DNA of 64,000 bases from Escherichia coli. GTDB taxonomy: Bacteria > Pseudomonadota > Gammaproteobacteria > Enterobacterales > Enterobacteriaceae. Location of the stretch: assembly GCF_050920415.1 (NCBI RefSeq), contig NZ_CP169309.1; one strand, 5' to 3'. The notes below the pieces were generated by a model, which ran no database searches, was not told where the DNA came from, and worked only from the letters and a program-made list of their open reading frames with translations. This document shows positions 46,098 to 46,234 of the stretch, one piece after another (within the stretch, counting starts at the first letter, position 1; every line of letters starts with the position of its first letter). The translations under genes were made by a program, and so were the position numbers.

Positions 46098-46184
46098 ATG
46101 ACTCACATCGTTCGCTTTATCGGTCTACTACTACTAAACGCATCTTCTTTGCGCGGTAGACGAGTGAGCGGCATTCAGCATTAA
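46098..46184 (+). CDS. leuL: leu operon leader peptide
   Basis: 28-codon [31 protein letters not shown] with four consecutive CUA Leu codons, followed by the attenuator hairpin. Confidence 0.9.
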
Positions 46185-46202
46185 GCCAGCACGCAGTCAA
46201 AC

Positions 46203-46234
46203 AAAAAACCCGCGCCATTGCGCGGGTTTTTTTA
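46203..46234 (+). terminator. leu attenuator terminator
   Basis: aaaaaa-CCCGCGC-cattg-CGCGGG-ttttttt, 19 bp after the leuL stop and 43 bp before leuA. Confidence 0.9.

Follow-up and report, generated by a model that had tools for sequence, protein, structure and literature searches.

The leuL leader and ribosome-mediated attenuator of the leuABCD operon in a divergent Escherichia coli lineage

Introduction

Ribosome-mediated attenuators comprise a short leader ORF with control codons, the RNA pairings 1:2, 2:3, and 3:4, and a terminator located before the first structural gene. In the window analyzed here, a 64-kb stretch of E. coli DNA, a run of leucine codons within a short ORF precedes leuA, and the locus raises the question of whether it holds the leucine attenuator known from E. 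coli K-12 in complete form or a variant with altered regulation. An earlier note on this DNA had recognized the classical attenuation arrangement of leuABCD. This reading is borne out by an Rfam match, a leader peptide identical to that of K-12, mutually exclusive folds, and published work on strain MG1655, and we hold it to be nearly certain that the element is the leuL leader with the ribosome-mediated transcription attenuator of the E. coli leuLABCD operon.

Results

Genomic context and lineage

Regions 27000 to 31000 and 39900 to 52300 of the window were used for lineage comparison. Identity was 100% to strain MFDS1022581 (12.4 kb), 95.9% to K-12 (11 kb), 92% to Escherichia albertii (5.9 kb), and 88.7 to 94% to other Escherichia-labelled species representatives. 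Only 3 of 5,426 complete genomes reached at least 99% identity over leuABCD or murC-ftsW, the remainder lying at approximately 95 to 97%, and by these values the window belongs to a rare, divergent E. coli lineage. An assignment to E. albertii, considered on account of a 160-nt leader identical to that of its type strain, was ruled out by the lower identity to that species than to K-12 and by the complete identity to a RefSeq E. coli. MFDS1022581 originates from animal-source food in South Korea.

The gene order in K-12 and MFDS1022581 is ilvI and leuO (minus strand), followed divergently by leuL-leuA-leuB-leuC-leuD (plus strand). The leuA, leuB, leuC, and leuD ORFs (46277 to 50958, plus strand) are uninterrupted and encode proteins of 523, 363, 466, and 201 amino acids, which differ from their K-12 counterparts by 1, 2, 1, and 4 residues, respectively; the genes are annotated in the 100%-identical RefSeq record. 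Downstream of the operon, setA is missing: the end of leuD at 50958 is followed by sgrS (50992 to 51218, minus strand; Rfam SgrS, 228.9 bits), whereas in K-12 the 1.2-kb setA lies between the two. As K-12 setA is found in only 3,241 of the 5,426 complete E. coli genomes, its presence or absence is a common polymorphism.

The stretch from 45900 to 46300 is annotated as leuL or leuA in RefSeq in 5,399 of the 5,426 complete E. coli genomes. It contains a full-length match to the Rfam family RF00512 (Leu_leader) at 46084 to 46233 on the plus strand, covering model positions 1 to 148 of 148 with a score of 147.5 bits (E = 1.6e-32; gathering score, 50 bits). The match lies directly 5′ of leuA on the same strand, as expected for this family, and the leuABCD ORFs behind it are intact. 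Within it are combined a Shine-Dalgarno (SD) sequence, a start codon, and a short ORF, tandem Leu codons, and an intrinsic terminator ahead of leuA; in the folding models, an antiterminator exclusive with the terminator and a structure that depends on the position of the ribosome were added to these.

Several other Rfam families matched elsewhere in the window. PssrA (plasmid-encoded Shigella sRNA A) scored 105.5 bits at 24498 to 24587 on the minus strand, at the chromosomal ftsA/ftsZ junction between the ORFs 24567 to 25829 and 23355 to 24506; because of this chromosomal location, the family name is misleading here. Further matches above the gathering score were tp2 (6811 to 6924), naRNA4 (18198 to 18275), STnc40 (18782 to 18851), and the TPP riboswitch downstream of sgrR (52975 to 53074).

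The leader ORF and its leucine control codons

The leuL ORF extends over 28 codons on the plus strand, from the ATG at 46098 to the TAA stop codon at 46182 to 46184 (46098 to 46184), and reads ATG ACT CAC ATC GTT CGC TTT ATC GGT CTA CTA CTA CTA AAC GCA TCT TCT TTG CGC GGT AGA CGA GTG AGC GGC ATT CAG CAT TAA. Its product has the same accession, WP_001300467.1, in K-12 and MFDS1022581. A mechanical ORF list placed leuL within a 63-codon ORF (45993 to 46184, plus strand), compared with the annotated 28 amino acids, and was likewise overlong for leuO (44497 to 45525, minus strand), with 342 amino acids versus 314 annotated. Because such a listing opens each ORF at the earliest start codon that follows a stop codon, the long N termini of both are annotation artefacts and no true extensions. 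The start at 46098 is supported by the sequence GGAG on the plus strand at 46086 to 46089, read from the sequence as an SD motif 8 nt 5′ of the ATG, by the invariance of this ATG in 70 of 70 leaders compared (see below), and by its position downstream of the promoter. The G residues of the SD motif are conserved in at least 90% of these leaders.

The earlier note had reported four consecutive rare CUA leucine codons in leuL, and this run is indeed present; it occupies positions 46125 to 46136 (plus strand, CTA-CTA-CTA-CTA in the leuL frame), one base 3′ of the interval 46124 to 46135 given there. The 12-mer is unique within the 64-kb window, and 100 dinucleotide-preserving shuffles never produced it. 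Of the 1,880 Leu codons in 43 long ORFs of this DNA, only 66 (3.5%) are CTA, equivalent to 3.7 per 1,000 codons, and none of the 17,716 codons in these ORFs forms part of an in-frame CTA-CTA pair. With this codon usage, the probability that four Leu codons are all CTA is approximately 1.5e-6. A rare Arg codon, AGA, is located at 46158 to 46160, directly 3′ of the antiterminator arm GCGCGG, and is shared by 61 of the 70 leaders, 5 others having AGG; since the protector hairpin brings this stretch into pairing with the CUA codons, the choice of AGA may reflect only a pairing constraint.

The promoter and upstream region

A perfect consensus −35 hexamer, TTGACA, is present at 46035 to 46040 on the plus strand. 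It is the same in K-12 and at least 95% conserved in 67 nonredundant upstream regions from many genera, and this position and conservation mark it as the putative −35 element of the leu promoter. Downstream, a block from 46050 to 46076 is strongly conserved across genera; it includes AACTCT (46059 to 46064, plus strand), a likely −10 candidate despite its poor match to the consensus. The transcription start site we take to be that of K-12 (EcoCyc/RegulonDB), which would place it near 46071, 27 nt 5′ of the leuL ATG. A consensus promoter scan did not return the leu promoter, probably because of the weak −10 element, and we regard this as a limitation of the scan.

A MarA site found by ChIP-seq has been reported in the intergenic region between leuL and leuO (PMC5684230). 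The corresponding sequence, gcacaattagctaat, is intact at 45971 to 45985, approximately 50 nt upstream of the −35 hexamer, and much of it is conserved across genera.

The terminator

The GC-rich hairpin and T-run that the earlier note placed 3′ of leuL were identified at 46203 to 46233 (plus strand) as a putative intrinsic terminator with a 13-bp stem, a CAUU loop, a U7 tract, and a predicted folding energy of −20.2 kcal/mol. The arms AAAAAACCCGCGC (46203 to 46215) and GCGCGGGUUUUUU (46220 to 46232) flank the loop, and the seven T residues extend from 46227 to 46233, so that the end coordinate of 46234 given earlier lies one base beyond the T-run. The hairpin corresponds to positions 120 to 148 of the Rfam model, and its G+C core is invariant in the 70 leaders. 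From the end of the terminator at 46233, 43 nt separate it from the leuA ATG at 46277 on the same strand. Terminator activity is predicted from sequence and fold. A simple consensus terminator scan did not list the attenuator hairpin, probably because A6/U6 pairs carry the stem through the T-run and leave no T-rich tail; the miss is probably a limitation of the scan and no evidence against the terminator.

Predicted folding of the leader RNA

The 181-nt leader region folds far more stably than shuffled sequences, with a minimum free energy (MFE) of −58.3 kcal/mol compared with −39.6 ± 3.6 kcal/mol for the latter (z = −5.25; 0 of 200 shuffles as good). Untranslated leader RNA is predicted, in both MFE and nascent-chain folds, to form a long imperfect hairpin, the protector (46084 to 46196, plus strand), composed of the helices 46084–46103/46177–46196, 46108–46117/46162–46171, 46123–46129/46155–46161, and 46139–46142/46150–46153, in agreement with the Rfam consensus structure. 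The third of these helices overlaps Leu codons 1 and 2; pairing of the Leu codon region with 46155 to 46161 sequesters the sequence GCGCGG (46151 to 46156). In the alternative fold, the antiterminator or preemptor (46151 to 46215, plus strand), this GCGCGG pairs with CCGCGC (46210 to 46215), enclosing a hairpin at 46159 to 46198. CCGCGC also serves in the 5′ arm of the terminator hairpin.

The antiterminator is the MFE structure of the RNA located 3′ of a ribosome stalled at the Leu codons, if this RNA is cut before the 3′ arm of the terminator, and reaches −19.9 kcal/mol compared with −11.5 kcal/mol without region 3 (46209 to 46215). In a scan in which a ribosome with an assumed footprint of −15/+14 nt was moved along the ORF and the nascent RNA was folded under this constraint, the preemptor was part of the MFE structure when Leu codon 1, 2, or 4 occupied the A site; with Leu codon 3 there, a near-isoenergetic alternative lacking the 6-bp preemptor won. 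At 15 of 16 positions past the Leu run, including the stop codon, the preemptor was absent, as the ribosome covered either region 2 or the hairpin that supports it.

Equilibrium folding of the complete leader was also considered as a test of the switch and dropped, as the terminator was kept throughout, even with the ribosome footprint blocked; truncated nascent folds were used instead, and the antiterminator was seen solely in such kinetic-style truncated or constrained folds. Since the terminator always wins at equilibrium, attenuation has to be decided kinetically, in line with the textbook model. The earlier note had proposed a search for alternative antiterminator and terminator structures; in the models obtained, terminator, protector, and antiterminator are mutually exclusive and depend on the position of the ribosome, and the predicted folds reproduce the classical protector/preemptor/terminator scheme.

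Conservation of the leader across genera

One genome per species was scanned with the pattern GGNCTNCTNCTNCTNAACGCAT, in which the third positions of the Leu codons and all downstream sequence were left free. The scan yielded 90 loci, of which 70 distinct leaders were retained after removal of chance hits, edge cases, and duplicates; as every hit had to contain GG, a CT at the start of each Leu codon, and AACGCAT, this set samples only E. coli-like leaders. They represent many genera of Enterobacteriaceae, among them Escherichia, Salmonella, Citrobacter, Enterobacter, Kosakonia, Raoultella, Leclercia, Lelliottia, Phytobacter, Pluralibacter, Atlantibacter, and Pseudescherichia. Although the third positions were free to vary in the search, all 70 leaders have CTA at each of Leu codons 1 to 3; at codon 4, CTA occurs in 65, CTC in 3, and CTT in 2. 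Leu codons 3 and 4 are unpaired in all modelled structures, and the fixed third base of an unpaired codon argues that the identity of the codon, and not its pairing, is selected.

The sequences TGCGCGGT, CCCGCG, and GCGCGGG were invariant in the 70 leaders, and so were the synonymous sites of the codons CGC (46152) and GGT (46155) within the GCGCGG arm (70 of 70 each). Other leuL codons vary, for example, CGC/CGT at 46113 (20/41) and TTT/TTC at 46116 (18/43), and outside L4, N-A, and R-G the N- and C-terminal parts of the peptide differ freely between genera (MTHIVRFIG versus MIRTTRFTG). Fixed synonymous sites in combination with a variable peptide indicate that the constraint acts at the level of the RNA and not on the peptide.

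Base pairing was evaluated in the same 70 leaders. The core helices of the protector are paired in 99.6 to 100% of cases and the outer helices in 70 to 75%; for protector and terminator together, 83.9% of cells are paired, compared with 36 to 48% if partners are slid. Covariation in the protector is weak, with 10 pairs showing double changes versus 8.9 in shuffles. The antiterminator has 81.7% paired cells versus 25 to 44% after sliding, and its inner hairpin contains 13 double-change cells, a number reached by 0 of 500 shuffles. The six pairs of the preemptor itself are 100% paired and all invariant, and covariation therefore neither confirms nor refutes this helix.

The strong conservation could also be read as a sign of a second function, in which the terminated leader RNA of approximately 160 nt or the LeuL peptide acts in trans in addition to the role in cis. 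Such an RNA would be stable and highly structured, ending in a strong hairpin with a U-tract, and the leader is very strongly conserved, but the cis mechanism accounts for all conserved features, and the free variation of the peptide outside L4, N-A, and R-G argues against a functional LeuL. We therefore consider a dual function very unlikely, and its narrower form, in which the terminated transcript is also a trans-acting small regulatory RNA besides being part of the cis attenuator, slightly less probable again.

Comparison of the leader with that of K-12

Of 163 leader bases, two differ from K-12 (98.8% identity): position 46077, in the 5′ untranslated region, is U instead of C, and position 46175 is U instead of C, a synonymous change of ATC to ATT. 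Identity is lower in the flanking sequences, with 96.4, 94.7, 94.9, and 94.0% for leuA, leuB, leuC, and leuD, respectively, and 94.0% for the upstream intergenic region, which points to a stronger constraint on the leader. Neither difference falls within a helix, and the energies calculated for the protector (−35.5 kcal/mol), the antiterminator (−19.9 kcal/mol), and the terminator (−20.2 kcal/mol) are unchanged. In a separate observation, the 160-nt leader segment from 46082 to 46241 matched that of the E. albertii type strain at every base, whereas the surrounding 5.9 kb are only 92% identical; this could reflect strong purifying selection or recombination over a small patch.

These data bear on the possibility that the leader is intact while regulation in this divergent lineage is quantitatively different or lost, possibly through the tRNA-Leu reading CUA, whose gene lies outside the window, through promoter strength, or through single-nucleotide polymorphisms (SNPs) in or around the leader. 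The lineage is rare and only approximately 95 to 97% identical to other E. coli strains, the promoter spacer carries a single substitution relative to K-12 (46049, G versus T), and the 593-bp upstream intergenic region shows 33 mismatches plus 3 gap positions. Against this stand the placement of both leader SNPs outside every helix with unchanged energies, the identity of −35 hexamer, SD sequence, peptide, control codons, preemptor, and terminator to those of K-12, and the higher conservation of the leader than of its flanks, which implies continued selection. Altered regulation thus appears scarcely probable. That the hairpin and T-run are merely a constitutive terminator or insulator, the short ORF with its Leu run being incidental, has next to no probability and is effectively refuted: the hairpin is highly stable and at equilibrium forms in every case, but the neighboring leuO is divergent, leaving nothing upstream to terminate, the ORF with its SD sequence, ATG, and CTA run is maintained in many genera, four CTA codons would be expected by chance at only ~1.5e-6, and a reporter with CUA changed to UUA shows codon-dependent read-through (bioRxiv 10.1101/2021.05.27.446073).

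Discussion

With leader, −35 hexamer, SD sequence, and leuABCD ORFs all present, the claim that the regulatory leader of this strain is complete holds at the sequence level. The leu attenuator found here is the already known one, complete and, as far as sequence can tell, functionally indistinguishable from the K-12 version, and leucine biosynthesis in this strain is almost certainly under standard attenuation control.

The features described suggest the following course of events. Transcription would begin approximately 27 nt ahead of leuL. Before RNA polymerase has left the leader, a ribosome would start on the 28 codons of the ORF. With ample charged CUA-reading tRNA-Leu, the ribosome would pass the four CUA codons and cover region 2 (46150 to 46171), leaving region 3 without a partner until region 4 (46220 to 46226) emerges; regions 3 and 4 would then form the 13-bp terminator, and transcription would halt at the U-tract before leuA. 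If leucine is scarce, the ribosome would stall with CUA in its A site and mask region 1 (46108 to 46129), so that GCGCGG (46151 to 46156) would be free to pair with CCGCGC (46210 to 46215); this preemptor pairing would forestall the terminator and allow the polymerase to read into leuABCD. Without any translation, regions 1 and 2 would pair to give the protector, and the terminator would form as well. For this strain, we infer the kinetics, the ribosome-polymerase coupling, and the regulation itself from these features or take them from the literature.

For MG1655 it has been reported that ribosomes pause at the four CUA codons of leuL when the cognate tRNA is impaired, relieving termination before leuA, and that the drop in RNA density from one side of the attenuator to the other is 29-fold in controls but only 4-fold with paused ribosomes (bioRxiv 10.1101/2021.05.27.446073). 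In the same study, which includes ribosome profiling of K-12 leuL, a leuL-leuA'-nLuc reporter responded 11.5-fold with CUA versus 2.7-fold with UUA codons, and the E. coli leu operon attenuator is attributed to Wessler and Calvo (1981). A response of operon expression to leucine or charged tRNA-Leu supply by way of the leader has thus been shown for K-12, whose leader is essentially identical. Replacement of CUA by CUG in Salmonella reduced the sensitivity of the response, as summarized in PMC1183508; the selective-charging argument identifies CUA as the most suitable control codon (PMC1183508). The fixation of CUA at Leu codons 1 to 3, the third of which is unpaired in our models, agrees with published arguments that selection acts on the rare codon as such and not just on leucine. 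Beyond annotation, the finding of the leu attenuator has little significance; it does illustrate how little this element has changed in a rare E. coli lineage, even with a divergence of 4 to 6% in the neighboring genes.

Comparison with known attenuators

The closest relative is the leu attenuator of K-12, with which the window shares the 28-residue peptide, the four CUA codons, the SD sequence, the −35 hexamer, and the protector, preemptor, and terminator sequences, as well as the gene order leuO<>leuL-leuABCD. It differs from K-12 in the two leader bases, the one promoter-spacer base, and one base between terminator and leuA, and in its context, where the surrounding genes are 4 to 6% diverged and setA is absent downstream of leuD. 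The Salmonella leu leader, on which work was reportedly carried out by Gemmill, Searles, Carter, Bartkus, and Calvo, has the same architecture. The leader of S. enterica subsp. arizonae (L033, MSHIVRFTGLLLLNAFSVRGRRVGGIQH) shares the Leu run, TGCGCGGT, CCCGCGC, and the terminator core with the window, although the identity over the region is only 78 to 83%. Salmonella differs from the window at several residues of the peptide, and the normal control codons of S. typhimurium are three CUA codons (PMC1183508) rather than the four found here. The enterobacterial leaders trpL, hisL, thrL, pheL, ilvL, and ivbL follow the same logic of ribosome-mediated attenuation as leuL but differ from it in control codons, sequences, and Rfam families. 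Among such systems, leu is the paradigm for control by a rare codon, CUA, whereas thr and others use major codons (PMC1183508).
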